DNA from: Nemertoderma westbladi
Lineage: Eukaryota; Animalia; Xenacoelomorpha
Assembly: GCA_032718475.1 (NCBI GenBank)
Contig: JAUCBJ010004427.1
Span: 6,252-70,251, forward strand
Direction of reading: 5' to 3'
Length of the DNA: 64,000 nucleotides
Part shown: positions 18,777-64,000 of the stretch, piece after piece
How positions within the stretch are numbered: the first letter of the stretch is position 1
Layout of the letters: each line of letters starts with the position of its first letter
Notes under the pieces: model-generated
What the model was told of the DNA's origin: nothing
The model's input: the letters and a program-made list of their open reading frames with translations, nothing else
Database searches by the model: none
Translations under genes and position numbers: made by a program

Positions 18777-18851
18777 CTGCTCCCAGAAAATGGGATTTGC
18801 AAATGGGATATACAAAATCACAGTTTCTAATATACGTAAATACTCTAAACA

Positions 18852-21999: not shown

Positions 22000-22286
22000 T
22001 ATAAGCAGTAGGTAATTATTCTATAACACAATACAATCCTGTAATCCAGTGTATAATATTAGTAGTACAACAATCCAGCAATATTATAATTAGTAATACA
22101 GCGGTACAATAATTAGGCAGAACAACCTCACTCTGCCAGCTTTACATGTAGGCCTAACCCTCCACCTGTCACACTGTACTGTACATCTGTATGTATCTCT
22201 TAACCTCAGTTCAGCCAGTCCGGTACCGGTACAACCCACATTCGTACATCCCTCTATTGGGCCATGGCCTCTTATTTCCCCTTATA
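22000..22286 (-). repeat. Gypsy-like 3' LTR (TATAAG...CTTATA termini)
   Basis: Direct repeat of 26331-26617. Confidence 0.95.
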
Positions 22287-22351
22287 CTCCCCCCAGTTCA
22301 TTAATGAACTAATCTTGAATTGTCACACATGTGGAAATCATAATTTTACTT

Positions 22352-23953
22352 TCAGTTTATATTAATCCCATATCTCATAGGTGGTCTTGACACTCGTCCC
22401 GTACGCAATCTATAGTGCTCTCCTGGTTCTTCAACTGCGTTTGCATTGGTATAATCGACAGTTTCCTCTAAACTTTCATTTGCAACAATATTATCTTCTT
22501 CATTTGAGCTAGATTCACTGTTACTATCACTATAATTCTGGTGTTGTACGGGTACTGTTGTGCAGTACTGAGCAGTACTGAGATTATTTGGGCTTATCTG
22601 CCCACATTCCGCTTTCCTAATGTCTTGTATATGTCGCTTGTATCCACCTGCTATAACTGACCAAGAATCTGGAACCGCCTCAATTATCAGTGGGCCTCTC
22701 CATTTTGTGTGGCACTTTACATGTTGTTTCGGCTTAATATATACAAATTCCCCAATTTTAAACTTATATTCCATTTCCGGTTCTGTTGCAATAACTTCCG
22801 TAACACCTGGTAATTTGGTGATATGATTTGAGGTAAGCAGTTCCCATGGTGACTTATTTCCATGTGATGCAGTCCTGTTATACCAAAAGGCAATTTGCGT
22901 GGGTTCTTTGCCTGTTCTTGCTGCCCATGTCTTAATAGTTCTATGGGATCTTTCAACTATATTCCCTTGTGGTCTATAAGTGCACGAGGTCCGGTGTTTA
23001 ACTTCCCATTTTTCCAAAAATTGTTTTGTTTCTTTACTCCTAAAAGCGGGTCCATTATCAGACAATAACTCTTCTGGGGGCCCCCACTCAACAAATACTT
23101 GCTGCAATTCCTTTATAACTGCCTCTGCAGTTTCTTTATTAACTTTACGCCATATAGTAAACCCGGTAGCGCAATCGACCATTGTCAGATATTGGTTTTT
23201 ATTTTCATCCTCTGTGAAGTCAGTTGATAGTCTTTCCCACCCTCGCTCCATCTTACAAGTTCCTTTTTTCACTGCAGTAACAGGATTTGGATCTATGTAT
23301 TTGCATTTATTACAGCTATTGCACACTTCTTTGACTAATTTCCTTGTCACATTCATTGTCTGTAATTCTCTATTGGCATCACACAATACTAGTGTTCTAT
23401 CCGTCCCAAGATGTGCAATTTCATGTAATTCTTTGACTCTTTGAAATATTTGGGCTTTGGATAGTGGTTTTTCAGTTAATTGTACTCTTTCATCTTTAAC
23501 AAGTGTTTCCATTTCATCACCTCCCACTGTTACAATGGATTTATTCTGGTTAATCAACCATGGTTTGGGAATTCTGGTTAAATAGTCTGCCAGGTTTTTG
23601 CTAGATGATACTAGTTGAATTGTTACTTTTAAATTATATTCATCGACAGTTTTCTTCAATACATCTAGTCGCCTCCTTATCAACATCTTTGATAACCCTG
23701 TATTTCGTAATCTATGTTCATCTTTCAACATCGCACTAATCCACCCATAAACTGAAGCTGAGTCAGTGTATAATTTGATATTTTTCAGTCCCCACTGTAA
23801 TGCCATATTTATTCCTTGTATAACTGCAGTTAATTCAGCTGCATTGATATGTTCCGGGTCACTATCTTTACGAAGCCATGCCCCATCTTCCGATATTCTA
23901 CCCCCAATCTTAACTAATGCACCTGTAGCTATCGCACTAGCATCAGCCCAAAC
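22352..23953 (-). CDS. pol: Pol C-terminal part: RNase H and integrase (in frame with 23954-25528 across one TAG)
   Basis: RNase H motifs WADAS...HINAAEL...YTDS...NLADYLTR. Integrase HHCC (H...HLG...C..C), STDF/SDNG/VER DDE triad, and a KWRGP GPY/F-like motif. Confidence 0.9.
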   Translation of the reverse strand, partial: VWADASAIATGALVKIGGRISEDGAWLRKDSDPEHINAAELTAVIQGINMALQWGLKNIKLYTDSASVYGWISAMLKDEHRLRNTGLSKMLIRRRLDVLKKTVDEYNLKVTIQLVSSSKNLADYLTRIPKPWLINQNKSIVTVGGDEMETLVKDERVQLTEKPLSKAQIFQRVKELHEIAHLGTDRTLVLCDANRELQTMNVTRKLVKEVCNSCNKCKYIDPNPVTAVKKGTCKMERGWERLSTDFTEDENKNQYLTMVDCATGFTIWRKVNKETAEAVIKELQQVFVEWGPPEELLSDNGPAFRSKETKQFLEKWEVKHRTSCTYRPQGNIVERSHRTIKTWAARTGKEPTQIAFWYNRTASHGNKSPWELLTSNHITKLPGVTEVIATEPEMEYKFKIGEFVYIKPKQHVKCHTKWRGPLIIEAVPDSWSVIAGGYKRHIQDIRKAECGQISPNNLSTAQYCTTVPVQHQNYSDSNSESSSNEEDNIVANESLEETVDYTNANAVEEPGEHYRLRTGRVSRPPMRYGININ

Positions 23954-25444
23954 CTAACCCTCATTTGTATCACTGATCGGCCAATAACCCTGTGCTGGAT
24001 CATTTTCATTTGTGCGATTTATAACCTCAATTAATCGTTTCCTTGAGTCATTGCTAATGGGTGAATCCATTGGGATTGCTGCCTCCTGTCTTTGTAACCA
24101 GCTACATACCACACGCAACCAACCCATAATCAAATAATTACCTCTTAATTTCCCAATTATTGCCAGAAGTCTTCTATGTGTTAATGGGTTTTCCACTTCT
24201 TCTAATTTGGGTAATTCACTGTCTCTTTGCCATCTTCCATCTTTTATATATATTCCAAGTAACCGACCACCTTCTATTAATCTTACTGGTTCTTTGGATT
24301 GTAATCCATAGTTTCTTAAATGATTTCGAATTTCCTCTGCTGGTACTTTATCTACATTGACATAAATATCATCTCGGAAGTTGTCAGCTGCTTCTTCAAT
24401 CCTTTTATTTTGTTTTATGACTGTTTCGACAATTGTATCTAGGATTTTAGGAGCTGGACCCAATCCATAACCCAACCTAGTCATGCAATAACGTTTCCCA
24501 TTATGTACTACTACTTGGTATGGGTGTAAACTAGGAGCTATTCCCAGCTGCATGTATGCTGATTTAAGGTCAATCACTGCTGTTTGTTCTCCCATTCTGG
24601 CCCATTTTCTAAGCTTCTCGTTACTGGCAGCAGCATCTGCTCCTGGTTCTTTCACAATGAATGAATTCAGTTCTCTAAAATCCATTATAGGACGTACTCT
24701 ATCCTTTCGAGGTTCGTCCTTATGCATCAAGGGGATCAGCCCTTTGGTCTCTCCCTCAAATTCTTTTAACCAGCCCTTTTCTATCCACTCATTCATCGCT
24801 ATCTGGAATTTTTCTTGTAATTTTTCTGGTATTTTATATTGGGTCACTTTATTATTCAGTTTAGCTGGCGGGTGCCCCGCCTCGAATTTATATTCTGCTT
24901 CCCAATTTTCCCCATCCCACTCTGCAGTAAAATCCCGTCTCTCTATGCGAATCTCTGGATCCACTTTTCCCACTCCTCCAACCAATGAACTATTCTTTTC
25001 AATTTCTCCTAATTTAACAACCATGTTTCCATTCAATTCCTGATGCACTGACATACCGCCCACCTGTTTAATCAGCTCCCAGCCAATAATTATGTCTACA
25101 CCACCCACAATATAATCTACAATATATATTTCATGGTCCACATTACAATCTTTACCATTACCCATTGTAGTGCCATTAAACCAGAGTTTAGTATTAATCT
25201 TCCCTACAATATTATTAGTTTTTGATCCATCCAACATTGTTATTTTCCTTTTTTCCCTTAGTTGTGTAAACCTTCCACTCATTTCAATGCTGGATTTATA
25301 TGTTGTGACTGTATACCCACAACCAGTATCAATCAATCCTTCCATATCTAATCCCCTACATTTCACATTAACATGTGGTAAGTCGCCTAATGAACTAGGG
25401 AAACGGCCACTGGCGCATATGCCGTCCCCCTCTACTAGTTTCCC
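23954..25444 (-). CDS. pol: Pol N-terminal part: aspartic protease and reverse transcriptase
   Basis: Protease LIDTGC. RT motifs RPIMDFRELN, IDLKSAYMQ, RLGYGL..AP, FRDD and LLG. Confidence 0.92.
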   Translation of the reverse strand, partial: GKLVEGDGICASGRFPSSLGDLPHVNVKCRGLDMEGLIDTGCGYTVTTYKSSIEMSGRFTQLREKRKITMLDGSKTNNIVGKINTKLWFNGTTMGNGKDCNVDHEIYIVDYIVGGVDIIIGWELIKQVGGMSVHQELNGNMVVKLGEIEKNSSLVGGVGKVDPEIRIERRDFTAEWDGENWEAEYKFEAGHPPAKLNNKVTQYKIPEKLQEKFQIAMNEWIEKGWLKEFEGETKGLIPLMHKDEPRKDRVRPIMDFRELNSFIVKEPGADAAASNEKLRKWARMGEQTAVIDLKSAYMQLGIAPSLHPYQVVVHNGKRYCMTRLGYGLGPAPKILDTIVETVIKQNKRIEEAADNFRDDIYVNVDKVPAEEIRNHLRNYGLQSKEPVRLIEGGRLLGIYIKDGRWQRDSELPKLEEVENPLTHRRLLAIIGKLRGNYLIMGWLRVVCSWLQRQEAAIPMDSPISNDSRKRLIEVINRTNENDPAQGYWPISDTNEG

Positions 25445-26310
25445 TGGACCTGGGATCCTCCACCTTGCCTCCAAGGTCGATTTAATTCGGCTGTACAACC
25501 TCGTATAAGATGGTCTGTTCCGCCACATCTAAAGCAACCCGATTTAGTTCTGTTCCCAGGTAAATCACTCTCAGCCCAACATTCTCTTGCAAAATGGCCG
25601 ATTTTCCCACACTTAAAACATACCACACCCCTTTCTCTATCTGTAAACCCAAATCCTATACTACTACGCCCTCGTCCAGCTGGTGGTACCGCTGGATTCC
25701 GTCGTTCTGGTTCTAATATTCGACCTGTAGGCCTATTGTATGATCGATTCAAACTTCCCATTCTACCAACCGCACCTACCATCATATCTTCATTTCCCCT
25801 GCTCTTTTCCGACCATAATCTCCTGGCCTGGACTAGAAGTTTATTTAAGTCCAACTCACCTGCCAAAGCTTTTGTATCCTGTGCAATTGTATCTGGAAGT
25901 CCACTAACGAATTGAGCTGCAATCATTTTCTTTGCAGTTTCTGACTCTGTTTCGCCTGTCACTAACCCGCACAGTCTCTTTACATCTGCTAAATAAGTAT
26001 CTGGGGCCTCTCCTACTCTTAACTCCCTTTTTTTAAATAAGTCATAGGCTGTATATTCATTTAGAGCGAATGCAGCAATTAGTACTCTCTCTATTTTCAT
26101 ATAATCTCTTTTATCTTCTTCTGGTATCTGACTGACAACCTCGTAAGCCGGTCCCTCTAATGACAACCTTAGATACGTTGATCTGGATTCCTCTTTATAC
26201 TTGGCTTCAATGATTAACACATCATACGTGTCGTTAAATATTGATAACCAGATGCTAGGGTCACTGAGAACGTCATATTTTTTAACATAGTCAGATATTT
26301 TTGGTGCCAT
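25435..26310 (-). CDS. gag: Gag with two CCHC zinc knuckles
   Basis: CFKCGKIGHFAREC and CFRCGGTDHLIRGC. The ATG is 20 nt downstream of the 5' LTR. Confidence 0.92.
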   Translation of the reverse strand: MAPKISDYVKKYDVLSDPSIWLSIFNDTYDVLIIEAKYKEESRSTYLRLSLEGPAYEVVSQIPEEDKRDYMKIERVLIAAFALNEYTAYDLFKKRELRVGEAPDTYLADVKRLCGLVTGETESETAKKMIAAQFVSGLPDTIAQDTKALAGELDLNKLLVQARRLWSEKSRGNEDMMVGAVGRMGSLNRSYNRPTGRILEPERRNPAVPPAGRGRSSIGFGFTDRERGVVCFKCGKIGHFARECWAESDLPGNRTKSGCFRCGGTDHLIRGCTAELNRPWRQGGGSQVQGN

Positions 26311-26330
26311 CTCTGTCAGCCCGGTTAGCT

Positions 26331-26617
26331 TATAAGCAGTAGGTAATTATTCTATAACACAATACAATCCTGTAATCCAGTGTATAATATTAGTAGTACA
26401 ACAATCCAGCAATATTATAATTAGTAATACAGCGGTACAATAATTAGGCAGAACAACCTCACTCTGCCAGCTTTACATGTAGGCCTAACCCTCCACCTGT
26501 CACACTGTACTGTACATCTGTATGTATCTCTTAACCTCAGTTCAGCCAGTCCGGTACCGGTACAACCCACATTCGTACATCCCTCTATTGGGCCATGGCC
26601 TCTTATTTCCCCTTATA
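26331..26617 (-). repeat. Gypsy-like 5' LTR
   Basis: Direct repeat of 22000-22286. Confidence 0.95.
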
Positions 26618-26622
26618 CAAAC

Positions 26623-29600
26623 CATCATCCGAGATGTGAGTCTCGATGATACGACCTGTCTGCCACCGCTTACGTGGAAGATCTGAATCCACAATAAGGA
26701 CCATGTCTCCAGCGCTGACGTTTTCTTGCTGCGCAAACCACTTAGTTCGAAGTTGTAGCGTGGGCAGATAATGTTTTTCGAAATGGTCAGCGAAACGACG
26801 GGATAACAACTGCATAAGTTGCCAAGTTTGCCAGCAGTATTCGTCTCCGTCTGTGATTTCCGATCGTGGGAGCATGGCTACAGGTTTCTTCAGTAGGAAG
26901 TGCGTGGGTGTTAGCGCTTCCAGGGAATCGGGACTCGATGAGACTGGCATAAGCGGTCTCTCATTGAGATAGGCGGCGATTTCCTCCATTAACATCCGCA
27001 AAAGTTCGTCGGTGAGATACGCACGGCACGGCACTATAAAGTGAAATGCGGTCTTCACGCTCCTGATTAATCTCTCCCAACTTCCTCCCCACCAAGGGGC
27101 GTCGGCGGCGTTGAAGGTCCAGCTAGACGCTGTTACCCTTAGCTGATCGTCCACCTGTCTTTGGTTCCAATCTTTGACGTAAGCCTCGATTTCATTGTTG
27201 GCACCAATGAAGTTTGTTCCCGTATTAGATCTCATCGTGTTACTAGTTCCAAAGCGAGCGATCTGACGTTGTAAGCTCAATAGGAAGCTGTTGGTAGATA
27301 AATCGTTCACCATATCGAGATGGATAGCTCTACAAGTCATACAAACAAAGATGACACACCATCTCTTGACTATAGTCCTAGCACGATATACTTCAATAGG
27401 GCCAAATAAATCTACACCGGTATTAGTAAAGGGTGGTTCATAGAAGCTTACTCGTTCCCTAGGTAATTCTGCCTCTCGCTGTGTTAAAGGCCTACTGAAT
27501 GCTTTCCTACAGGGTATGCAGTTCCTAAGAACTTGGTTCAGAGCTCTACGGGGTTTATAAAAATAATAGCGAGTTCGAATTTCGCTAAGAACTCGTTCTC
27601 TACCAGCATGATAAAGTTTGCTGTGAACATCTACAATCATCTTGATTTGTATTTCAAGATTTCTAATGAGTATGGGAAACTTAGTGTCAAAGGATAATGG
27701 AGCATTAGTTAATCTTCCTCCAACACGTATTAACCCATCTATCATTGTGCTAGAGAAACGATCCCTTAAGCGCATCTGTGGATTTCTCAACAACAGGAAA
27801 TACTTATCGGAATCCTCATAGCATTGCAGGAGTCTCAGCATCTGCTTATTGGTTTCTTCATGCTCCTGATAACTGATCTTCTCCTTCAGAAACCTGTCGG
27901 ATATCTTATATTTGGGAAGATCTTTAACAACATGGACCTGCACAGATGTCAGTGGAGCGGTATCACTATTGGTCTTCGTCCTGGAGTAGTGATGATGAAA
28001 ACATCGCTTTAAATATGTAACGGCCTTACAGAGCCGATTCCAGGAACTGTAGTGATATATCGCTCTCTGCAGGAGAGGTGAGAGTCCTTGTGAGACGTCT
28101 GGTATTCCAGATTTCCAATCCTTCTCTCTGATTTCCACAACAGACTTATTTGTGGCTGTGGGTTTCGGATCCAAAGCGTCGTCTCCGGAAGTGTGTAGTA
28201 CAGACAGATCTACCACGGGTTTAAATAACTTCGATTTACTCGCCCGAGTTTTAGGTTTGACTTTCTCCGCTCCCTTGGCCTGTCTAATCTCCGCCGTAGT
28301 AAGATGAGGAGGCCATTCATCCTCTTCTTTGCTTAGGAAGTTGGGTCCACCTAACCAGTCTGGAGTATCTATCAGTTCTTGTGGAGTTGCTCCCCTGGAG
28401 GCGATGTCTGCTGGATTAATCGTTCCGGGGCAATGTCTCCATTGATCCATCTTCGTACGACTAAGTATAATGGCTACTCTGTTGGTAACGAAGACGCTGA
28501 ACTGACAGACTTCATTGGTTATATACTCCAACACGAGTAGAGCATCGGTCCAATAGACAGTTTTCTCCAGTGGATATTCGATCTGTTCTGTTACATTTCG
28601 GCCGATGGCTGTAGCGTATAGAGCCGCCTTTAACTCCGCTCGAGGAACTTTCAACTTGTTGTTTATCAATGCCTTAGAGGTAACCAAGGCGACTTTGATT
28701 CCATCCGGAGTTTCAACTCTCAGGTAGGCTACTATACCTATTCCCATATTGCTGGCGTCTCCAAACACATGGAGTTGATATGAATACGTAGGGAGAACAT
28801 GACCAAAATATGAACGGGAAATTATAAAGTTCTCGATGGCTGGTAGAGAATCTTCCCATTTCATCCACTTCTTTAATAGTTCTCCCTTAAGTGGATCGTC
28901 CCATGAGTGGTTTTCAAGCCACATTTGTTGTACTAAACTCCGAGCAATCAATATAACTGGGCTAATAAATCCCAATGGATCGAAATAAGTGCTCAGGATA
29001 CTTAAACAAATCCGTTTAGTCCGAACTGGATTATCTCGCTGTTTGAGCTGGAAAAACAGGATATCTCTCTCTGTGTCCCATTTCAAACCAAGTGTCTTGG
29101 TTTCTGGAAGATTGTCTTTGATTAAGTCTAGATCTTTCGCTCCTCGATCTTCTACCGGGATCGATTCCAGAAACTCACGGGAGTTGCTGGTGAATTTAGT
29201 TAATCGAAATCCACCTCTTTTTAAGCACTCTACCGTTCCTTTGGCGACATCAATGGCTTCTTCCACCGATGGAAGGGACTTTAAATTGTCGTCCATGTAT
29301 ATATCTCGTTTGATGTTGTCGATCACCTCTTTTGAGAAGGCATCCCGGTTGTCATCAGCAGTGGTGCGCACCACTGAGCAGGCGTTTGAAGGGCTTGAGA
29401 TGATCCCAAAGGCCTGGATGGTCATCCAATACTCCACCGGTTTCTGGTTGAGGTCTCCTTCCAGCCACCACAGAAATCGTAGGCTATCTCGATCCCTATC
29501 CAGCGCCTTGACTTGTAAGAACATGCCTTCTATATCGGAGGCGAAAGCGATTGAATATTGTCGTAATCTTAAGAGTATTCCCAACAAGGATTGGAGTAAG

Positions 29601-32600
29601 TCGGGTCCTGGTAACAACTCGGAATTAAGGGATTGGCCCATGTAGAGGGCAGAGCCATCAAATACTACCCTTACTTCATGGGGTTTACCGGGTTTGGGAA
29701 TGTAATGATGTGTTAAATAGTACGTTCTCTCAGTTATAGGTGTTTCTTCCGGTACTCGCTCCGCATATCCCTTGTTAATAAATTTCTTCAACTGAGTCTG
29801 ATACATTTCTTTAGCTGAAGCATTTGCCGTAAGGCGTCGATGTAGTTGAGCAATTCTTTTCTCCGCCAAGGGTCGGTTGTTTATGAATTTTGGTTCTCGC
29901 TTTCGGAATGGTAGACCGATTTCATATCTACCTTGATCTTTAAGAAAACGTGTAGTTGTCTCCTGGATCTGCTTGGCTCTTTCTTCTTCTACCGATAGGG
30001 CTTTATCGTAGGAATTGGGCTCTACGGCCTCTTGAGTAAAGAATCGTACGGCGTGTTCATCCCAAGTCTTCGCGTTATAGCGCTCGATTACGTCATTCAG
30101 TTCGTCGTTATAGTCGACTTGTCCTGATGGACGAATGAGTTGGCATAGGTTCACTTGGTTTTGCCAAGTCTCGTTTTCCGTAAGGAGATCGATGGTATTC
30201 TCCTCGTCGAAGAGTTGGTGGATATCGTCATTATCTGAGGAGTATGGTGTTCCCTCAGTTGGGTCGTCTACCTCACTGCTCTCCACTTCCCATTCACTTA
30301 CTTGATATACCTGTTCTTTTGGTAACCTTTCCATGAGAGTTCTACGGGAAGGGCCAGTAAAGTACCAACCCACTCTAGTTCTTCCTGCATAGGCTTGTAG
30401 TGGTTGAGGTTGAGCAGGCCGTTTCTCCAATGTCTCAAGCGCCTCATGCGCATTTTGGCCGATGAGTATTTGTACTCCAGGGTAATCTGTGTTGAATCTA
30501 GGTATATTAAGCCGCTGGGTGAAATCGTCCTCATCCCAGTTATAAGGTTCTACTTGGCTGGTAGCGAAGTTCTTTATCGCTACAATTTTTACTGACCTTA
30601 TGCTGTGTTCTCCTAGTTCATCCTGGGGGTGGACAACGCACCTACATAATAATCCGCTATTACTGTAGATTTCCAAACCTGCATAATTCCTGACATGTTT
30701 AACTTAGTTCGGAACTTGGGTTGTCCAGCAAAGATGTCTTAGTTCTTTAGTTCTTTTGTCTCTAGTTCTTTGTCGATGAATGTTCCTGTGCTACCGGAGT
30801 CAAGGAGGGCATTCACTATATAACTCCTTTTAGGTCCGTGGACCCTCAACTGCACTACGGGAAATTCTCGGATTCCTACATTGGAAGTTGGTGCTTTCCA
30901 AGATGGTTGTCGGTCAGAAGTAGTTAGGGGAAGCTCGCTATCGGTGTCCTTTTCATACGTAAGTGCTCGATACACTGCGGTATTTATCAGGTAACAGGAT
31001 TCGTTTTCATCGGAGAATTCGTCCGTATAGAATCCTTCCATCTCACAACTTTGGTCAGTGTCGTTCACATCACTGAATTGGACATGTAGTTCAGAATCAC
31101 TTACCTGACTCGGGCTGTTTCGTTCGAATTCAGTGTGCAACAAGATATGATGTTTTGCGCCGCACTTCGCACACCTTGCGTCGGAGTAACAGGTTCGCCT
31201 TTGGTGTCCTTGTCTGAGGCAATTATAACACAACCGCTTATCCCACATGACTTCCCGTCTATCCTTTAATGATTTCTTTAGGAATTCATCACACACATTC
31301 AAACGGTGGGGCCCGTCACACAGCGCACATTTCGGTTTGATGTTACTTACCTTATTTTGAGTAACGTTGTGTACACTCGTTCTTTCTTCAGGCTTTCTTA
31401 CATGAATTCTCTTAGGAGACGTAGGAGGAGTTTTTCTTACCTGTTCTCTCCTGTCATTGGTTCGAGACTTGAATTTACTTACGTCTTTAGGCGTTTTGTT
31501 GACATAATAAGATCTTTCAGTGTCTTTCCCGCTGTCTTCTTCTTGAGAAGCCTGGCTTTCGCCGTCGTCGGTATAACACACTGGTGTTACCTTTCTCCTA
31601 GAAACGGGTTTCTCACTTACCTTGTTTTCCGGTGTCTTCTCTCTGGACTGCTTTAGGAGCTGTAATTTCACTTCTCCATTTAAGAATGACATGAGATCAG
31701 CCATGGTAGGATCTCGTCGTTGTTGTTCCATCATATATAACACTTTCTTATCCCAGCGTGTACCTACTCCACCCTTCGGTAAAGTAGAGGCCACGGCTCC
31801 AATAACCATAGAACTCTGATATTCATGAGACTTACCTAGCCAATCTAATTGTCTACAGATCTCCTGAATCTCATCGGAAAACTCTATAATCCCGCTGCTA
31901 ATGAACTTTAGGTGGGCTACCAATTTTGCATACAAATACCTAGCTATGTTATTCCTATTACCATACCTGATGTTTAGGGTATCCCAAACTTGTCTTAGTC
32001 CTTCTGGATGTCCAATAAACTTTAACGCCATTAACTTGGGAGATCCTTCCAAGCACTCGATGAGGAATCTAAGTTTCTCTCCGTTAGATAACACAGAGTT
32101 CTGTATGTTATCCTTGTAATATTCATTAAAAGGTAACCATTTCATCTCATCTCCATTAAACTTGACGATCTCTCCCACCTTTACCGCTTGACGGGCTTCG
32201 GTTCTAGCCATTTGACGCGTAAAACTTTCTTGGGCCATCGTATTATTTAATATCGAGTTATCGGTATATAAATTTCTCGGATTATGATCAGGTCTATATG
32301 GAATATCATTGTCAACAGGTTTATAATTACCCTTAATAGGGTTTACTATAGGAGTTTCTACTTCACTAGCAGTATAGATGCGTGTAGGCTCCACACCTTG
32401 CGCATGAAATACTTCAGACCTAACAGGTTGACACATTGTTACCGGGGTTGGTGGTATACCCTTTTGTATATTTACTAATTTATCGCGTTCTAACGCGATA
32501 TTCTGCTGCACTTCTTGCAACTCTAACCTACTTTCCCTTACTGTTCCCTTGAACTGCTGAACAGTTCCTTCCATCTCCCGGACCTGCTGTGCTGAGAGGA

Positions 32601-34507: not shown

Positions 34508-35849
34508 GTTTGTTTGTACAGTTGAATGCCTACTGCTATATTACAGTTAAAGCAAGTCTAGTAATTCAGTATCACCGTTAGCCTAGTAATTAATTACCGA
34601 TATCGTTACTCTATGTAACGTGATATATATACAATATATTAGAATACCGGTATACACTTATAGTATATATATAAGTATTATTACAGACTAGGTTTGTCAC
34701 AGAATACCGGTATATAATTTCAGCACAGATATATATAAATATATAATAGGCCTATCGTGAATACCGGTATACAGCTTACACTTATAGTATATATAAGTAT
34801 AATTATGGACTAGAATTAATTACAGAATACCGGTATAATTTCAGCCTAAATTTATAGAAATAAATATAATAAGCCTATCGTAAATACCGGTATGTCAATT
34901 ATTTTAGAATAATTGAATTTCTGAATTTTAGGGGTTACTTGTTTACTTTACTTTACTTGATTGCCGTTATTTAAGCAGTAGTCCAACTGACATTAAGACC
35001 TAATTGTTGTAAGACAGGCCTACTATTTTATAAATCGGTTTAAGTTGATTTATAATATATATATACCCGTATAATGGGTTTTGTCAATATTTGAAATAAA
35101 TGTTATTATTTCTGGGAAGGAGTCACTACACAGAAGCTGTGTGCTCTCAGTGAAGTGCTACTTGTTGGACACTAAAAACAAATAATTATAATTTACCTAA
35201 GTTACTTATTACTACAAATTACGTACAATACGGGGTGAGATTACAATCTCTAAATAAACACAAAAATTACACGTACGAATTTTTAGGGTAATTTCACAAG
35301 AAGTCTACAAACCAGCCTAACAAAGGGTCAGAATATCTGGTTATTACAAACAGACAGGATTCTACGGCATTTGAAAATAACAAAGCAGTAGTAAATATAC
35401 TGCGCTGTCCAGATAGGAAAAATACCACCGTCTGACGACTTATAGCCGTATCGCTATAAGTACTACGTTATGTTTCACAGAGTGTTCCTACCTAGAAGTT
35501 AATTACCGCGGCCTATCAGAGCCAACGTGCCTATTAACCACTTTACAACACAAATATACTGCCTACACACTAATTACCTTCGGAAAGCACTGTACACTAA
35601 ACCCTAAATTAGGTACAAGTACTTATACAACAAATAACCAGCAGTTAGAAATACTTGTACAGCTAAAAGAACCACGGTATCTGCTGGAGTGACCGGGGCA
35701 CAAAATCACCAGTCTTTACCTACGCCAAGCAGCCCTGATGTAGTACCGGGGTTAATTTAACTATAACGGTATGTATAACAAGCACAATTACTGTAGGAAT
35801 AAACTTGGGGTTGTGAATGTTGCGAATAATCGCATAAACTCTGAATAAT

Positions 35850-36422
35850 AAATATTACGCTACGCGTACAGACTACACAAACAAAATACAGACCAAACGC
35901 TGGCAGACTACTATCAAGCCTAAACAAACTACAGTATATGCAGACTCCGAAATGGTTAGTTAGTATGCATTCTAACCGAGTAGTACGACTTATTCTTTCG
36001 GGGGGATTTACCTCACAGCACTGGAAGCCCCTACGTTCCTAACTAGTACTCTATCGGACATACACTCTACACACACCGCAATCTCTTCAGATCTAACAAC
36101 AGCCAGGCAACAATCCAGCCTACAAATTATCTAAATAAGAAATATTACGCTACCCGTACAGACTACACAAACAAAATACAGACCAAACGCTGGCAGACTA
36201 CTATCAAGCCTAAACAAACTACAGTATATGCAGACTCCGAAATGGTTAGTTAGTATGCGTTCTAACCGAGTAGTACAACTTATTCTTTCGGGGGGATTTA
36301 CCTCACAGCACTGGAAGCCCCTACATTCCTAACTAGTACTTTATCGGACATACACTCTACACACACTACAATCTCTTCAGACTTAACAACAGTCAGACAA
36401 CAGTCCAGCCTACAAATTATCT
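35850..36422. repeat. 290-bp tandem duplication in the BEL-1 5' leader (homolog at ~50703-51272 in BEL-2)
   Basis: AATATTACGCTAC starts at 35851 and 36141. Confidence 0.9.
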
Positions 36423-36758
36423 GTACAATCTGAGCAGGCTTACACGTCTTCTGCTCAATATTAACCTACAAATAAATAAAACTGACAGAAATAAGTAAAC
36501 CATACAAAGGAATAAGGGGTGATCAATCCCTAATCCCCTAACAGCCTACAATATATAATATATCACAATCGAAATAATACTGGTACCTGTACTGCAGTAA
36601 GTACCGGTTCGGGTGGTTAGGTAGTTAGGCCTACTAGTTACCGGTTGACCGGTACTTCAGCTTTATTGCCTACGTTGCAATACAGAAGCAATAACTGTTA
36701 TTGTTCTTACCAGAACAATAGTAAACTGTATTTATTGCCTACACTGCAATAAGAAATC

Positions 36759-36769
36759 ATAACTGTTAT
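36759..36769 (-). promoter_or_regulatory. Non-tRNA primer-binding site of BEL-1 (ATAACAGTTAT), complementary to LTR-internal 37505-37515
   Basis: It abuts the 5' LTR end and has no TGG. An 11/11 complement exists within the LTR. Confidence 0.7.
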
Positions 36770-37914
36770 TGTTCGCGCTTTCAGACCTTTAGCAGTTTAA
36801 CCTGCCAAATTTAGGTGTCTTCTAGGTTATAAATCGACTTTAGCCTATGACGAGTATTTGATACACTACATTAGCTGAAGCCAGTCTATGCGCGACCATT
36901 CACCCGCTGGATATACCCGGGAGACTGGATTCGGAAGCTCTGACCTTATTGCGGTGTAGGCCTACTGTATTATTCGACTGATCGTTAATATATAATCTCT
37001 GACAAATATTATTCACTTTCGGGAAATATTAACAGTTCCTTTAGGACGTGGCGCTCTAAATATGTAAACAGAATTATGACTTACACTAGACACAACGGGA
37101 TGGCTATTGATTCACGTATAAAGCGCATTCTTTAGAAGATGCTTTGTTATCTGTCACAATCATGCACACTACCGCACTACGCTGCACACCGATCTGCCGA
37201 CCTTCACTAATTTTAGTCACATATAAAGAGAACAGCAACCGACACATGTAGTGCCTATGAAATAGCATTAGATTCACTCCAAAACCAATATAATGTAAGT
37301 CGCAATTGCTATATGTAACCTGTCTCTTACCTTCAGTATATCAAGAAGATTGGGGGTTTTATGATTATTTATCGATATTATCCAAATATAATAATATTCC
37401 ATCAACTGATATAATTAATAACCGACAGTAAATAGCAGTAAAAATGTGGTGTTTGTAGGTGACAATATGTTTTGTAACAATATGAATTGCGTTGGATTGA
37501 ATTGATAACAGTTATACGTTTCTATGATCAAAGCCTACTAATGTTTGGCTAAAGCCTGAAACATAGAAATTCCAAAGCCGGTGTTCTGGCATCAGGAAAA
37601 ATACACACTGACTGAATTGCGAGAGTTTCTGTATACAATGTCCAACACAGAGTGAAAACCGCTCTGATTGGTCGACCGAACAAAGAACGAACAAAGAACA
37701 AAGAAAAAGTTACACGTGGACACAGCTGATAGATGTAGTCATCTGAGTTCCGATGTTTAGAGTATTTGAGCTTATTGCGGAGAAAAATGGCTTTTTATGT
37801 CCGCTAAAGCACACATGCAGACATAGCGAGCAAATCGCCTGATATGTCCGCTAAAATACCTACTCGGTATATTGCAGAGAAAAATAGCTTGTTACATCCG
37901 CAAAAGCTTTTACA
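36770..37914 (-). repeat. BEL-1 5' LTR
   Basis: Direct repeat of 17632-18776. U3 holds a CCAAT box (CTGATTGG on +), E-boxes CACGTG/CAGCTG and ATGTCCGCTAAA repeats. Confidence 0.96.
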
Positions 37915-37919
37915 TGAGC

Positions 37920-38915
37920 TGAGGAGCCGTTGGGCTCCCTCTAGTGATTTCTGAGAGTACTCTTAACTCATCAGCAAAGTCTAGATCAGTTAGGTACTTG
38001 GCAGGATTTCCTCGACTTCTGGAGCCAGTAGGTGGAGTTATCATCACCCCATCATCATTATGATGATCTAAGGACATGAGTAGAACATAGTCAACCACAA
38101 TTATGAACAAGAATGGTGCAAGTGTGTCTCCCTGGAGGACGCCCCATAACACTTCCAATGGTTCTGTGTCACCGTCAACAGTAGACACAAATGTTGTCGA
38201 ACCATCGTATACTGATCCGATTGCTGCAATAATTTCATCAGGAATCACATATAATGAAAGTATGCTGAACATACGTAAGCGAGAGACTGAATCAAAGTCC
38301 TTGAAGAAGTCAACAAAGGTAACAGCCAGATGCATGTCTTTCTTTTTTGATAACTCTTCAATTATCCTTCTAACTGCCAATATGGGCTCCATGGTCCCAC
38401 GACCTTTACAGAACCCATTCTGATTTCCACGGAGCAGTCTCTCAATGGGATCCCTGATGCAATTTAATAGAATTCTATTGTATAGCTTTGCAGCAATCGA
38501 GATCAATAAGATTCCCCCATAAAGACCCATAGAGTGTTAGGTGGCTGAGTACTGGCACCAAATTATTTATTTTCATTTCTTGTGGAACTCTTGTTGTTCG
38601 GTACATGTGGGATAGATGAGCTTTAAACACTCAGGTATTTTAAAGACCTCAGGGGGAACACCATCTACTCCACTGGCACGATTGGTCTTAATGTTGTTTG
38701 CAGCAGCCTTCACTTCTGCAAAGGAGATATTGCCAATAGGAATATCTGGGGGTACAGACTCAGACACTTTTACTTCTATAAAGTTATCAGGCAATACCCT
38801 GTCATTATTGAGGAGCTTTTCAAAGTGGGCCTTCCAACCATTGAGGCGATCGGCTGGTGATTCAGCCTTAACCTTGGTGGTTGGTTGGCTTTACCGCCCA
38901 GTAAGCAAGTTGATC
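37920..38915 (-). pseudogene. RTE LINE RT N-terminal part (5'-truncated)
   Basis: Motifs ASGVDG.P.E, KLYNRILLN, NQNGF..GRGT, FVDF.K.FDSV, GVLQGDTLAPFLF and LDFAD. It rejoins 17626 across the TGAGC TSD. Confidence 0.9.
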
Positions 38916-41511: not shown

Positions 41512-42710
41512 TGTTCGCGCTTTTGAAGACCTTTGGCAGTTTAACCCGCCAAATCTATATGTCTTCTAGGTTATAAATCTACTCCAGCCTATGACAAGTA
41601 TTGAACACCTATAATAATTCTAACATTAGCCAAAGCCAGTCTGTGCGCGACCATTCACCCGCTGGATATACCCGGGAGACTGGATTTGGATGCTTTAATT
41701 TGATTGCGGTGCAGGCCCACCGTACTATTCGATTGATCGTTAATATATAATCTCTGACAAATATTATTCACTTTTGGGAAATATTAGCAGTTCCTTTAGG
41801 ACGTGGCGCTCTATCTATTTAAACAGAGCTATGACTTACACTATACACAACGGTATGTCTTATAGATCACCAAAGTGCATTCTTTAGGAAATGCTTTGTT
41901 ACTCGGTCAAGCACACACAGACTATTGCACACAACTGCACACTGAATTGCCGATATTCACTGATTTTAATCATATATAAAGAGAATAACAACCGACATTT
42001 GTAGGGCCTATTAGGTAGCATTGAATTCACTACAAACCACGATAATGTATGTCGCAAATTGTTATATGTAACCGGTCTCTCTAACCTTAGTGTATCAAGA
42101 AGATTGGGTTTTCGGATCGTTATCAATATTCTTCCCAATAATAATATGTAAACGAACGATTCAATTAACAACACAGTAAATAGCAGTTTACGTCAGGGTG
42201 CTTAATCAGATGCCGAGGTGCAAAACCGTGATAACCATTTGATGATCTTATAATTAAAGACGCTCTAATGTCAGAAAACATTCCCCGGCCGGTGTTCTAG
42301 GCGTGGGGGAAACGTCAGTACTGAACCCTGTAATTCTGCTGTACAGCTTTTACACAAAGAGGGAATCTCTGATTGGTCGAATGGCAAAGAGCTCCACGTG
42401 GACACAGCTGATAGATGTCGTCATTTTGAGCTGAGCAGAACAAAGAACCAAGGCAAGGCTCCGGGCAAGCTACACATGTAAAGCTCAGCCGTTAGCTGTC
42501 GTCATAGTAACGACACTGTTTCAAGAGGATCTAGGGCGTTGCGTCATAGAATTGCTAATTATGTCCTCTTAAGTACACATACAGAAGAAATAGCTTTTAT
42601 GTCCCCTAAAAACACCGGTACAGCAATGACACGGCCTTTTATGCCTGCTAAACCAACTACAGAGTACTTTACGGGGAAAATAACCGGGCAATTCCGCAAA
42701 AGCTTTTACA
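41512..42710 (-). repeat. BEL-2 3' LTR (1199 bp)
   Basis: TGTTCGCGC...GCTTTTACA; the first 424 bp are repeated at 51627-52050. Confidence 0.93.
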
Positions 42711-45700
42711 CCGCTCCCAGAAAATGGGATTTTAGTCTATAAAATATAAAAATCACAGTTTCTAAAATATAAAGATACTCTAAACAGTTAGTTTTTCTTG
42801 CGCAGACGGCGTTTACGCAGTTTCTTGAGACTAGCAAGAGTCCTTTTCTCTTTGGGGCGAGCCACTTTACTAGGAGGGCTATAACTCCTGGGTGAAGGGT
42901 GCAATACAATTGCATCAGAAGGTTTAGGGTTACAGTCAGTGTCTCGTCCATTTCGATCTGCTTCTCCTCGAGCTGATTTTCCTCCGCTTGTCGTTGGACA
43001 CGCTCGTCCAAAACTCTCGCAGAGAATAGGGTTGTCTAAGCTCGATATCTTCTTAGAGATTCAAGATTTCCCAATCGAACTGAGATAAAGCCAATTCGTT
43101 TACCGCTTGGACTTGCTGTTATAACTAGCGTAGGTGATTTGTCGAACAAGTTTCGGTTTCCGTGGATGTTTATGTCTTTCCGTTTATTAGTTGGGTCTAG
43201 GGCATTTATCGTAATAATACCAAAGACGCACGTCTGGTAGGGGAAACGCGGATGATATTTATTTGTTGTTACAATGCTTCTATCAAGAATTCCAAAATAT
43301 ACGTTAGAGTTACCGCGTCCATTTGTCTCTCTAATGTCTTTTCTTTCGAGTCGATTTCGAATAGAATTTTCGCATTCGAATTTCAGTTTATCGTTCCGAC
43401 TCCGCTGGGTAGGATATATGTTCGACATAGTCCGTATCGTGTGAATCGATAGAATGGCCAATGGTTAAGAAGTCCATATCCGTACTATTACGATGCGTGT
43501 AGCGAGCGGTGAATTTTCCATAGTCCAATTCACGCGTAAGTTGCTTCTAGCAAATCGTCGGTTCGATATAACGACCATCGTCCTCCGTAGTAGTTGGACT
43601 AGCATCGCCGCGTATCAAGCTATCAACAAACACTTGTAAAGGTAGAGTATATCGCTCCCCGATACCAAGACCATCTTCTATCAACTCCGTTATATCTGCT
43701 ATATATGAGTTTATTAATATTATAATGAGCTTATAATTAGGCTAGCGAGCGTCGCTGCCTACCCCAATCAGCCCCCGGACAGTGTAAGATGCTCAGCGCA
43801 AATGTATCGTCGTCGCTGTGTTTTCCGCCAACGTGTAGCTACACAATGACAACGACACTAGCACGAGTCACTCCACTGTCCGTCCCAAAGGCTTAGATTC
43901 ACTTCAGGTTCTTACTGGAGAGTTAGGGTTACTTTCACAATTGCGACTCGCTACTGTAAACACACTTTAGTAGCAACATTCGCCTATAAACTCACAAATT
44001 CCACACACACAACTGTCACAAATTACACACACTCGGGCCATTTGTCCGTTAGTCAGTGCCTTCCAGAATGCCACGTTATTATTATGTATCCTTGGATACT
44101 AGCAGTGCGCTATTTATTTCTTACTATGCAATGGGGCAAGCTTTCTATTGTTCTTTTTAACTTGCTTCTAATTCTAGCGTGGGTGTTACTATGGTGACAT
44201 TATGGAAAGCTAGCGGTAGAATTAGGGTAATTCCAATGCATACAGATCTGGGATGCTATTTAATATTAATTCTTTAATGGTCCAATATCTCGTTTATATA
44301 TGATTTTATAAATTTTATCGGCTATTGACTCATACATGGGAGATTCTCACACTCTAACACACTTAATAGGATGAATCTCCGCTCCCGTGATCTATTAATT
44401 AATGGGATTTTGGGAATGTTATAAATTGCACAGAATGACAATTTATCAAATTCATTAAAATATGAATTTAAATTTATTCCCTGAAATTTTATTATTTGAT
44501 AGTACAATTGACACAATTTGATTCCAGAGCAGGTCTGGGGACATAGGATCCTTAATTCTATGAAAATTGTCTTTTAAGAGTATCGGTAAGTGCTACGATA
44601 TCTTAATCGACTAGAATTGTTAAAGGATCTGAATTTTACAGATTTTGATTTATAGATTTGTAAATATTAAATAATTAATATTTGAGATGGGCACCAATTT
44701 ATTCCAGAACTTGTCTGGGGACGTTAACCACTGATTCTAGAATTTGTCTTTCAAGTATATCGGTGGGTGCCGCGATATCTTAATCGACTAGAATTACAGA
44801 TGGTCAAAAGGTTTAACAGATTTATTTGCGTTTCACGCTACTGTTAGAGGGACATCACGCTACTATATGTATTATTATATATGGTATGAGAGCAATATCG
44901 CACGAAGCAATGTCAGTGTGAAGAGGCAAGTCGTTTCCAAGGTCTACCCAGAGCTTGGTTTAGCCGAGACACGAGGATCTGAACTTTGCATTCCTAATAC
45001 TCTGCCTACCAATAATACTTGAATATAGTAATGGCTTTATTGTACTTTAATAAGTACGGACATTTCATCTTACTGTAGTCACGTATTTATAATATGATAC
45101 GGACAGTAAGGAAAGAGAAAAATAATTATTTCTCGCCGTCGCACTAAATATATATTATAAGTAATTACGTACGTAATAGACACTAATATATTGCACTAAT
45201 CTACTAAATAATCACTAAAATAACATTCTACTAAATAAAATTAAAGAAAACGATTATAATAAAATTACATAATAATACATACATAAATATAAAATAAAAA
45301 CAAATATAAAATGATATAGTCACACGCCCACTCCATATGTTATTACGTTATGGAGTCCCTAGATATTTGTCGGATTAGGGAAGTGGTTGTAGGGAGAGTA
45401 TCTTGCCTTCCATAGTTTCCGGACAGTTTTCGGTCTCTTTCCAGTAAACATAAACGACCAGCTGGGCGATTGAGTTGTTGTGTTACTTTCTCCGCTCCCT
45501 TGGCCTGTCTAATCTCCGCCGTGGTAAGATGAGGAGGCCATTCTTCTTCTCCTTTACTTAAGAAGTCGGATCCACCTAACCAGCCTGGAGTATCTATCAG
45601 TTCTTGAGGAGTTGCTCCTCTGGAAGCAATGTCGGCTGGATTAATCGTCTCAAGGCAATGTCTCCATTGATCTATAGTGGAGTTAATATCGTCATTATCT

Positions 45701-49375: not shown

Positions 49376-51615
49376 GTTTGTTTACACAGTTGAATGCCTA
49401 CGGCTATAAATACAGTTAAAGTAAGTCTAGTAATTCAGTATCACTGTTAGCCTAATAATTAATTACCGATACTGCTACTCAGTGTAGCGTGATATATATA
49501 TAATATATTAGAATACCGGTATGCTTATAGTATATATATAAGTATTATTACAGACTAGATTTGTCACAGAGTACCGGTATATAATTTTAGCACAAATATA
49601 TATAAATATATAATAGGCCTATCGTGAATACCGGTATACAGCTGACACTTATAGTATATATAAGTATAATTATTACAGACTAGAATTAATTACAGAATGC
49701 CGGTATGATTTCAGCCATAATTTATAGAATAAATATAATAAGCCTATTGTAAATACCGGTATGTCAATTATTTTAAAAAATAATTGAATTTCTGAATGTT
49801 AGGGGTTACTTGGTTACTTTACTTACTTTATTACCGTTATTTAAGCAGCAGTCCAACTGATATTAAGACCTAAGTGTTGTATAACAGGCCTACTATTTTA
49901 TTAATAGATTTAGTGGATTTATATGTACCCGTATGAGGGGTTTTGTTACAATATTGAAATAGATGTTACTATTTCTGGGAAATAATCACTACACAGAAGA
50001 TATGCGCTCTCAGTGAAGTGCTACTTATTGGACACTAAAACAGATAATTCTACTTCCTAAGTTACTTATCTGCGAATTACTTACGATACGGGTGAGATTA
50101 ATTCTCTAACTAAACACAACAAAAATATTACGTACGAAATTTTAGGGTAATTTTACAGGGAACTACAAACCAGTCTAACAGAGTGTTAGATTTTCTGGTT
50201 ATTACAACGGACAGGATACTACGGTATTTGAAAATAATAAGTAGTAGTAAATACACTGTGTTGTCCAGATAGGAAAATACCACCGTCTGACGACCTATAG
50301 CCGTATCGCTATAGGTACTACGTTATGTATCACGGAGTGTCCCTACCTAGAAGCTAATTACCGCGGTCTACCAGAACCAACGTGCCTATTAACCACTTTA
50401 CAACACAAATATACTGCCTACACACTAATTACCTTCGGAAAGCACTGTACACTAAACCCTAAATTAGGTACAAGTACTGGTACAACAAATAATCAGTAGT
50501 TAAAAATACTTGAACAGCTAAAAGAACCACGGCATCTGCTGGAGTGACCAAAGCACAAAATCTCCGGTCTTTACCTACGCCAAGCAGCCCGTGTAGTACC
50601 GGGGTTAATTTAACTATAACGGTATGTATAACAAGCACAATTACTGTAGGAATAAACTTGGGGACATGAATGTTGCGAATAATCGCATAAACTCTGAATA
50701 ATAAATATTACGCTACCCGTACAGAATACTCAAACAAAATACAAACCAAACGCTGGCAGACTACCATCAAGCCTAAATAAACTACAGTATGTGCAGATTC
50801 CGAAATGGTTAGTTAGTATGCGTTCTAACACGGTAGTACGACTTATTCTTTAGGAGGGGGTTGACCTTACAACTCAAGATGCCCCAACTTACTAACTGGC
50901 ACTTTATCAGACAAACTCTACACACGCAGCAATCTCTTCAGACCTAATAATAGCTAGACAACAATCCAGCCTACAAAATATCTGAGTAATAACTATTACG
51001 GTACCTGAACAGACCACACAAACAAACACAGGCTAAAACGCTGGTAGACTACTATCAAGCCTAAATAAACTACAGTATATGCAGATTCCAAAATGGTTAG
51101 TTAGTATGCGTTCTAACACGGTAGTACGACTTATTCTTTAGGAGGGGGTTGACCTTACAACTCAAGATGCCCCAACTTACTAACTGGCACTTTATCGGAC
51201 AGACTCTACATGCACTGCAATCCGTTCAGACCTAACAACAGTCAGAACAACAGTCCAGCCTACAAATTATCTGTACAATCTGAGCAGGGTTACATGCCTT
51301 CTGCTCAATATTATCCTACTAGTAAATAAAACTGACAGAAATAGACCTAAGTAAAATCCCAATAAAAACCAGGCGTCCCCGATTTAATATCGAGACCTAC
51401 CGGTATATAATTATCAAAATCGAATAATACTGCTGTACCTGTACTGCTGTAAGTACCGGTCCGGATGATCAGGCAGTCAGGCCTACAGATTACCGGTCGA
51501 CCGGTACTTTAGTCTTGATCGCTTACGCCGCAATCAAGATCCTACAAACTGTTATTGTTCTTACCAGAATAATATTAAACTGTATTTATTGCCTACACTG
51601 CAATCAAGAATTTTA

Positions 51616-51626
51616 CAAACGGTTAT
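51616..51626 (-). promoter_or_regulatory. Non-tRNA primer-binding site of BEL-2 (ATAACCGTTTG), complementary to LTR-internal 42231-42241
   Basis: It abuts the 5' LTR and pairs 11/11 (one G-U) with sense CAAATGGTTAT in this element's own LTR. Confidence 0.7.
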
Positions 51627-52050
51627 TGTTTGCGCTTTTGAAGACCTTTGGCAGTTTAACCCGCCAAATCTATATGTCTTCTAGGTTATAAATCTACTCC
51701 AGCCTATGACAAGTATTGAACACCTATAATAATTCTAACATTAGCCAAAGCCAGTCTGTGCGCGACCATTCACCCGCTGGATATACCCGGGAGACTGGAT
51801 TTGGATGCTTTAATTTGATTGCGGTGCAGGCCCACCGTACTATTCGATTGATCGTTAATATATAATCTCTGACAAATATTATTCACTTTTGGGAAATATT
51901 AGCAGTTCCTTTAGGACGTGGCGCTCTATCTATTTAAACAGAGCTATGACTTACACTATACACAACGGTATGTCTTATAGATCACCAAAGTGCATTCTTT
52001 AGGAAATGCTTTGTTACTCGGTCAAGCACACACAGACTATTGCACACAAC
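51627..52050 (-). repeat. BEL-2 5' LTR, U5-side portion (interrupted)
   Basis: Nearly identical to 41512-41935 and stops at ...CACAAC where the BEL-3 LTR starts. Confidence 0.92.
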
Positions 52051-53358
52051 TGTACGCGCTTTTGAAGACCTTTAGCAGTTTAATCTGCCAAAATTTATAT
52101 GTCTTTTTGTTTATAAATATACTTTAGAAGATGACAAATATTTAATACTAATAAACACAACATTAGCAGAAGCCAGCCTAGTGCGCGTCCATTCACCCGC
52201 TGGATAATCCCGGGAGACTGGGTTCTGAGGGCTTAAATTATTATTGCAGTGAAGCTTACTGTATTGTATTATTCGATTGATCGTTAATAATTAATTTCTG
52301 ACTAATATTATTTACTTTCGGGAAATATTAACAGTTCCTTTAGGACGTGGCGCTCTATCTAAGTAAACCGAGATATGACTTATACTAATCACAACGGTAA
52401 GTCGGTAAGGCTTAAGATTCACGTATGAGGCGCATTCTTTAGGAAATGCTTAGTTATCAATCACAATCATGCACACTACCAGTAACACACAATACTGCAC
52501 ACTAATTTGCCGACCGTCAATGAATTTTATCATATATAAAGAGAACAGCAACGGACCAATGTAGTGCTTATCAAATAGCATTAAATTCACTACAAACCAC
52601 AACAATATAAGTCGCAATCGCTATATATAACCCGTCTCTCTAACCTGTAGTGTATCAAGAAAATTGGGAAATTTGGGTTCTTTATATATGTTCTCCAAAT
52701 AATGTTCAACCAAACACAACAGTAAATAGCAGTATAATAATGTATGTTAAACAGTAATAACAACCAAGTATTGAATTTTGAATGGAGTTGTATTGAATTG
52801 AGTTGAATTGGACTGATATGTGAGTTGTTATGAATTGTTAAGAACTGATAACAGTCATACGCTCTATAATTTTAGCCTACTAATGTTTCTTCTAAAAGTA
52901 TGAAACGAATTGATTCTAGAGCCGTTGTTCCTGGCCTAGACAGCAATAACCACAAAGTATCAAGAAAAAACAGTAAGACTGAACACTCTCCTTATGATCG
53001 ACCGAAAAGCTACACGTCGACAGGAAAAATCGCTCTGATTGGCTCAAGCCAAACAAAGAACCATGCGTCCAATGGCTGTTTCCATGTCAGCAACCAGCTG
53101 TTAGATGTCGTAATATGAATCATCACGGCTAAGCTATGAAAGGTATTTGTCGCATTGCAGGTTTTTTGCCTTACCATGTCCGCTAAAACACGTATATAGC
53201 AGAATGACTTTTATGTCCGTTAAAACACCTGTAAAGGTACCTTGCGGGCGAGGGGAATATATATACAGTTAGAGAACCTTTTTAGAGTATTCCAGCGCCT
53301 GGGGGGAAACTGGATTGCGAAGCAAAAGGGCCAGTTATATCCCACAGAAGCTTTTACA
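52051..53358 (-). repeat. BEL-3 3' LTR (1308 bp)
   Basis: Homologous to the BEL-1/2 LTRs, with the same termini and the same CCGCTCCCAGAAAATGGGA flank. Confidence 0.9.
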
Positions 53359-53436
53359 CCGCTCCCAGAAAATGGGATTTGAGTCTATAAAATATACAAA
53401 ATCACAGTTTCTAATATACGTAAATACTCTAAACAG

Positions 53437-63956: not shown

Positions 63957-64000
63957 CCTGTGTATATCTTCCCAAGTAGCCTCGGACAGATCTAACGGGA

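Follow-up and report, generated by a model that had tools for sequence, protein, structure and literature searches.

Pairing between primer-binding sites and their own LTRs points to tRNA-independent self-priming in BEL/Pao retrotransposons

The DNA analysed here, a stretch of 64,000 nucleotides from Nemertoderma westbladi (the window), contains three related BEL/Pao elements, BEL-1, BEL-2 and BEL-3, all of which lie on the minus strand. BEL-1 is flanked by a 5-bp target-site duplication (TGAGC), and its gag region is split over several frames. BEL-2 carries an internal deletion, and its 5' LTR is broken by the insertion of BEL-3 near position 52051. In BEL-3, the YMDD motif of the reverse transcriptase (RT) and four acidic residues of RNase H are present, the residues being assigned by what we take to be the typical BEL motifs. 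The elements are made up of the following parts:

17632-37914, minus strand: BEL-1, whole element, about 15.7 kb without its nested insert
36770-37914, minus strand: BEL-1 5' LTR (TG...CA), 1145 nt, 98.7% identical to the 3' LTR
17632-18776, minus strand: BEL-1 3' LTR, 1145 nt
26603-30703, minus strand: BEL-1 pol frame, sharing 94% identity with BEL-3 across RT-RNase H
51627-52050, minus strand: BEL-2 5' LTR, 3' part, 99.5% identical to the BEL-2 3' LTR over 429 nt
41512-42710, minus strand: BEL-2 3' LTR
52051-53358, minus strand: BEL-3 3' LTR
56379-63998, minus strand: BEL-3 gag-pol open reading frame, 2539 aa, stop-free, open at the window edge

Searches against Pfam identified DUF1759 (PF03564), Peptidase_A17 (PF05380), the integrase zinc finger (PF17921) and DUF5641 (PF18701), so that Pao-type gag-pol domains are present in the order RT-RH-IN, and BEL-1 additionally displays paired TG...CA LTRs together with its target-site duplication. 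By their proteins, the window elements are members of BEL/Pao, despite a primer-binding site (PBS) that is not of the tRNA type. The ICTV profile of Belpaoviridae/Semotivirus, which describes replication as poorly understood and assumes tRNA priming, lists a PBS of 18 nt complementary to the 3' end of tRNA-Arg or tRNA-Gly, with LTR lengths of 0.2-1.2 kb and genome lengths of 4.2-10 kb (PMC8742986). The window elements share with this description the LTRs, the gag-pol order PR-RT-RH-IN, the Pao-specific Pfam domains and the animal host, but they lack the 18-nt tRNA-Arg/tRNA-Gly site, have LTRs of 1.15-1.31 kb and, in the case of BEL-1, considerably exceed the given genome length. Among the 120 matches listed of 281, the nearest proteins are about 40% identical and have the same domains, with the named hosts among these matches including corals, echinoderms, ribbon worms, a brachiopod, crustaceans and fish. 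A collection of viral contigs contained neither a protein relative nor a match to a 22-nt LTR pattern.

The feature that sets these elements apart from the ICTV description is the sequence that follows their 5' LTRs. The original prediction had proposed that it pairs with a stretch inside the LTR itself, and the six 11-mers on which this proposal was built were all found again, on the minus strand, at these positions:

36759-36769, minus strand: BEL-1 PBS, no TGG, directly after the CA of the LTR
37505-37515, minus strand: BEL-1 LTR 11-mer, predicted primer or primer 3' end, complement of the PBS, 11/11 Watson-Crick
18367-18377, minus strand: copy of the 11-mer in the BEL-1 3' LTR, same letters as in the 5' LTR
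51616-51626, minus strand: BEL-2 PBS, no TGG, directly after CA
42231-42241, minus strand: BEL-2 LTR 11-mer, complement of the BEL-2 PBS, 11/11 with one G-U
52848-52858, minus strand: BEL-3 LTR 11-mer, 11/11 (one G-U) with the BEL-1-type PBS

Neither 5' LTR is followed by TGG, and both PBSs begin at offset 0 after the terminal CA. The BEL-1 PBS has a single 11/11 Watson-Crick partner in its own LTR (position 400), and the BEL-2 PBS likewise has one 11/11 partner, including one G-U pair, in its own (position 470); the BEL-1 PBS also finds one such partner, again with one G-U, in the LTR of BEL-3 (position 501). When the pairs are swapped between BEL-1 and BEL-2, by contrast, no more than 9 of the 11 positions pair anywhere in the other LTR. 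The predicted duplex energies follow the same pattern, with -10.1 (BEL-1), -10.9 (BEL-2) and -10.2 (BEL-3) kcal/mol for the matched pairs as opposed to -3.5 and -2.5 kcal/mol for the swapped ones. By chance, the exact BEL-1 site arose in 26 of 20,000 dinucleotide shuffles of the LTR, and sites allowing at most one G-U pair arose in 123 of 20,000 shuffles for BEL-1 and 56 of 20,000 for BEL-2.

The BEL-2 11-mer occupies the homologous position of the LTR, as had been claimed. This result comes from aligning the two LTRs pairwise, with two motifs that they share further upstream as anchors; a four-way MAFFT alignment misplaced the BEL-2 11-mer. In the pairwise alignment, the region around the 11-mer is about 56% identical between BEL-1 and BEL-2. 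The three compensatory changes invoked for this region indeed maintain the pairing, but their independence is less secure, because two of them are next to an indel of the aligned leaders, at the terminus of the helix, and may represent a single event. The further expectation that BEL-3, whose 5' end lies beyond the window, should have a PBS fitting its own LTR was addressed by searching for the BEL-3 LTR end in the contigs of four public runs. One contig of run X1 continues from a BEL-3-type LTR end into a BEL-1-type PBS, which pairs 11/11 with the BEL-3 LTR word, so that the expectation was borne out in a copy other than the BEL-3 of the window. Loose ends at the LTR boundary also end in a BEL-1-type PBS in nine contigs of X1 and 13 contigs of X2, two sets that stem from the same sample, and a PBS variant that is one base longer occurs in X1, X2 and X4.

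This arrangement resembles that of the fission-yeast element Tf1, whose 11-nt PBS pairs with RNA derived from its own LTR and whose primer is released when RNase H cleaves behind base 11 (PMC7175516, PMC4600332). Like Tf1/Tf2, Tj1 and the Tf1/sushi chromoviruses in general (Ty3/Gypsy, Metaviridae), the window elements have no tRNA PBS, and their LTR-adjacent PBS is the complement of an LTR-internal stretch. Unlike them, they encode BEL/Pao proteins and give no chromodomain match, and they are not members of this group; moreover, their primer site is located about 735 nt from the PBS. ARAGORN detected no tRNA within the window. Considering the sequence evidence as a whole, we estimate a probability of roughly 0.8 that the BEL/Pao elements of the window prime reverse transcription without a tRNA, by a self-priming process that works like that of Tf1. 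It is plausible that this process arose independently of Tf1. The first five letters of both PBSs are ATAAC (36765-36769 and 51622-51626, minus strand), as in the PBS of Tf1 (PMC11042837), a similarity that may reflect convergence or chance.

In Tf1, the primer corresponds to the very beginning of the transcript, and the LTRs of the window were inspected for promoter words accordingly placed. In all three LTRs, a canonical TATA box is missing some 30 nt before the 11-mer. The three share a single word in this region, ACATTAG (at -28 to -30), and two of them have TATA-like words at -10/-11. CCAAT is present at -135 to -184 in the window LTRs, and a canonical AATAAA is absent from all three. The promoter words are thus ambiguous as to the transcript start, and the notion that transcription begins at the first paired base, with the 11-mer forming the first 11 nt of the RNA, is a candidate only.

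Both leaders contain two further features that the original prediction had missed, namely a second copy of the LTR end and PBS about 70 nt downstream of the first and a predicted stem of 15-16 bp between U5 and the leader, with a pair probability of about 1 in both families:

36691-36701, minus strand: BEL-1 second copy of the PBS word with 5 nt of the LTR end, in the leader
51545-51555, minus strand: BEL-2 second PBS-like copy in the leader, only 10/11 with the LTR 11-mer
36945-36961, minus strand: BEL-1 U5-leader stem (predicted), arm in U5, 16 bp with a pair probability of about 1
36737-36753, minus strand: BEL-1 leader arm of this stem, just downstream of the PBS

In BEL-2, full pairing with the LTR 11-mer is confined to the LTR-adjacent copy (-10.9 versus -5.0 kcal/mol for the second copy), so that the match follows the copy at which priming must start. 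The U5-leader stem has family-specific letters as well, its energy being -26.8 kcal/mol for either family's own combination of arms and -23.0 and -20.9 kcal/mol for the crossed ones. The tandem duplication as such comprises the LTR end, the PBS and the leader arm of the stem (36660-36770 and 51510-51626, minus strand), and the presence of family-specific letters in both of its copies suggests conversion between the copies or repeated duplication.

More distant BEL elements reveal a different form of the same complementarity. Metagenomes were scanned with an alignment built from BEL-3 plus 35 homologues, which yielded 79 loci (from the best 80 of 543 matches, in 13 of the 64 parts of the collection). 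When their LTRs were read by eye, PBSs other than the TGG type proved to match not a contiguous LTR word but the junction left by the removal of a GT-AG intron from the LTR. The test set consisted of eight families in which the LTR 3' end is fixed independently by a second LTR copy, and in seven of them the PBS is complementary, over 10-15 bp, to a strict GT-AG exon-exon junction of its own LTR, under splice rules that were set after six of the seven had been seen by eye. In a matrix of ten families, strict-junction cross-pairs reach at most 8 bp and are zero in 84 of the 90 off-diagonal cells, and the 11 contiguous pairs of the window families compare with an off-diagonal maximum of 10 (1 of 90 cells). 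If any GT and AG are allowed, 7 of the 90 cross-pairs attain 10-12 bp, which means that the strict result leans on splice sites that look real. The eighth family, L071, has an LTR of 171 nt and a TGG-type PBS and is the only tRNA-type case among the eight defined families; its PBS (within L071 235-425) matches a tRNA-Met-type word that PMC5445492 gives for metazoan GalEa.

A systematic scan for such junctions, applied to the 52 loci with enough sequence upstream of the RT region, gave matches in 16 of them, versus 1 of 52 each for the reverse complement and for coding sequence, and in 22 of 52 if the 3' LTR was searched as well; many of the 30 non-matching loci have short upstream sequence. 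Two families (L043 and L015) were added by eye, a looser scan recovering L043 and contributing L037, and for L020 the match at the LTR end was used, which differs from its top match in the 52-locus scan. The match in L062, with a weak donor and far from any defined LTR, is probably due to chance and was left unlabelled in the tree described below. Contiguous self-complements were found in 6 of the 52 relatives, not above the nulls of 6 and 3. Two loci nevertheless show a possible intron-less self-complementary PBS, L041 (about 205-225 and 448-466), with an AC-then-C end and a second helix, and L060 (about 95-112 and 278-295); they may be intron-less self-priming relatives, their LTR ends not being fixed independently.

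The differing PBS words of these families bear on the idea that a host tRNA fragment or another small RNA acts as the primer, with the match to the LTR arising by chance or as a copied relic. Half-tRNA priming is known from Copia lineages (PMC6317226), and one relative, L071, has a TGG-type PBS. However, a fixed host RNA cannot follow the PBS words of about 20 families, each of which matches its own LTR or junction, and we consider this explanation highly improbable. A PBS complementary to a spliced junction, as predicted for the relatives, needs an RNA partner that the element itself produces.

Across the 19 relative families, BEL-1 and BEL-2, the helix measures 10-15 bp, and in 21 of 21 cases 0-4 nt separate its start from the LTR end. 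The scans required this position, but it also holds in the seven positive families with independently fixed LTR ends. The location of the helix is of interest because the pairing could instead have a structural or regulatory role, in packaging, dimerisation, translation control or masking of the PBS, while something else primes. The PBS of BEL-1 is, as originally noted, a near-palindrome, the leader contains several hairpins and the duplicated PBS word, and fungal GalEa elements have, in place of a PBS, a conserved hairpin whose role is unsettled (PMC5445492). Against this, all tabulated helices begin where priming must start, the BEL-2 PBS is not palindromic, and there is no other primer site at the LTR end, which renders a merely structural or regulatory helix very unlikely in our view.

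The position at which the primer would end is similarly uniform: AC or AT forms the predicted end in 20 of the 21 helices, and C is the next letter in 16 of them, window families included, although kin among these families are not independent. In the relatives, 4-7 nt separate the end of the intron from the predicted cut downstream of it, and there is extra pairing upstream of the main helix (mean -7.0 versus -5.0 +/- 0.5 kcal/mol in permuted combinations, 20 of 100,000), which implies that RNA is present upstream of the helix. The primers of the relatives are thus probably longer 5' fragments. Their TATA boxes, where found, lie 36 to more than 200 nt before the donor, so that the primer often would not consist of the first few bases, and the relatives suggest that it does not have to coincide with the first 11 nt of the RNA. 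Priming by the element's own RNA, the core of the original prediction, is well supported by the family-specific pairing in the window and by seven of the eight relative families, but the equation of the primer with the first 11 nt of the transcript is a candidate for the window families and probably does not extend to the relatives. In the window families, a second upstream helix does not rise above the cross-pairs (ranks 0.7 and 0.5), and no LTR intron makes or extends the window helix, with 0 bp for both families under the strict rules and a relaxed best of 10 bp, short of the contiguous 11.

The geometry of the pairing is less straightforward. The window helix is weak, at about -10 kcal/mol across about 735 nt, and in the relatives the distance from the acceptor to the LTR end is 51-223 nt (16 of 19 families measurable). 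In a pseudoknot-free fold of BEL-1, the 11-mer pairs with the second PBS copy (P 0.68) and avoids the LTR-adjacent one (P 0.0), since the latter pairing and the U5-leader stem cross each other; the helix with the LTR-adjacent PBS forms (P 0.97) only if the leader arm is left out. An element-encoded primer might hence be supplied in trans, either by a short transcript of an LTR, such as a solo or a 3' LTR, or by the other genome copy packaged in the particle. Pairing in cis would create a pseudoknot against the U5-leader stem and span the entire distance, and the LTRs of the family are extremely abundant, in very many variants, in the public contigs of the same organism. On the other hand, a trans primer needs a defined 3' end 4-7 nt past the splice acceptor, for which cleavage within the duplex is the simpler explanation, and the Tf1 precedent acts in cis. 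We therefore regard a primer provided in trans as unlikely and favour self-priming as in Tf1.

The steps of this self-priming process may be envisaged as follows. Transcription would start at or somewhat upstream of the 11-mer, thereby including it in the RNA, and the 11-mer would then anneal to the PBS beside the U5-leader stem. The RNA would be cut just 3' of the helix, after A and a pyrimidine and usually before C, probably by the RNase H of the element, as in Tf1, and RT would synthesise DNA from the cut end across some 735 nt of U5-R. The primer, being retained, would be copied into the plus strand and so rewrite the PBS in each cycle, which would make the PBS track the LTR and also explain why a PBS in DNA mirrors a spliced RNA. 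In most of the distant relatives, splicing of the LTR intron would build the primer across the exon-exon junction, and since the intron lies upstream of the cut, on the side copied from the 3' LTR, it could be inherited. Splicing of the 3' LTR copy could give rise to intron-less progeny resembling the window family, although the direction of this change is inferred. The window family is an intron-less form, either by loss or because it never had an intron, with the same predicted primer end of A and a pyrimidine, usually followed by C.

Self-priming had originally been viewed as a trait of the window family, which turned out not to be special in this respect: the complementarity occurs across a broad range of BEL relatives, predominantly as the splice-junction form, which had not been foreseen. 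A FastTree phylogeny of RT-RNase H sequences was built from 85 rows, which excluded unlabelled loci with short segments. Junction-type loci are dispersed throughout this tree, and the window family forms a long branch of uncertain placement, so that its common descent with the spliced relatives is no more than a possibility. On balance, we lean towards the broader view that a large and old part of BEL/Pao gave up tRNA priming and that most of its members assemble their primer with the help of the host spliceosome across an LTR intron, such that only spliced 5' ends prime. The very abundant family of the window would then be an intron-less derivative with a contiguous primer, converging on Tf1 down to the first five letters of the PBS.

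Another BEL/Pao element, Cer7 of C. elegans, has reportedly been proposed to encode its own primer RNA, from an internal tRNA-like sequence. The window elements differ from it in that their PBS pairs with an LTR 11-mer, and their relatives in that it pairs with a splice junction. Within the accessible parts of PMC6317226, self-priming is predicted from PBS-LTR complementarity for the plant Ty1/Copia TAR lineage (Houba, Osr-1) and for Tcn1 chromoviruses, which places it in more than one superfamily, but in other superfamilies and hosts than those considered here and with no splice-junction primer. The portions of PMC7175516, PMC4600332 and PMC11042837 available to us likewise make no mention of a splice-junction primer for Tf1. 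The literature searched contained no report of self-priming or splice-junction priming in BEL/Pao, with early BEL family papers, Repbase/GyDB and supplements as places that could hold a mention; the main texts of PMC554778 and PMC3118150 do not mention a PBS or tRNA, and BEL priming is not covered in the available part of PMC3601003.

While self-priming itself is known from Tf1, a PBS that is not of the tRNA type and pairs with its own LTR appears, from the literature searched, to be new in BEL/Pao. If this reading is correct, BEL/Pao would be the third superfamily of self-priming LTR elements, beside Gypsy (Tf1/sushi) and Copia (TAR, predicted), and the missing PBS calls in these BEL/Pao elements would be explained. 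The elements would also lie outside the control exerted by tRNA fragments at the PBS, and in the splice-junction form the onset of reverse transcription would be coupled directly to splicing. The proposed mechanism leads to exact predictions for the intron ends, for an RNA 5' end immediately beyond the helix and for the primer letters on the cDNA.

Several additional features of the locus deserve mention. BEL-1 harbours a young nested LTR element (22000-26617, minus strand) of about 4.6 kb, with identical LTRs of about 287 nt, TA...TA ends, frames for a zinc knuckle, RNase H and integrase, and a 5-bp target-site duplication by reading of its flanks. Its PBS has no TGG and no complement of at least 7 bases in its own LTR, and it resembles what we take to be the complement of the 5' end of cytoplasmic tRNA-Lys. 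The 5' leaders of BEL-1 and BEL-2 are more than 2 kb long and contain a tandem duplication of about 290 bp (35840-36422 in BEL-1, 50693-51273 in BEL-2). The region between pol and the 3' LTR (18777-21999, 42711-45480 and 53359-56378), about 3 kb in length, is conserved with short open reading frames only, three of which were tested and gave no Pfam match. The polypurine tract is short and atypical. BEL-1 inserted into another element, of which an RT fragment (PF00078) is left at 37910-38536 (minus strand). Three further stretches of the window, outside the BEL elements (9700-15697, 1334-1944 and 2197-4138), hold a tandem duplication of 3 kb (94%), a minisatellite with a 12-bp unit and inverted repeats that are nested.
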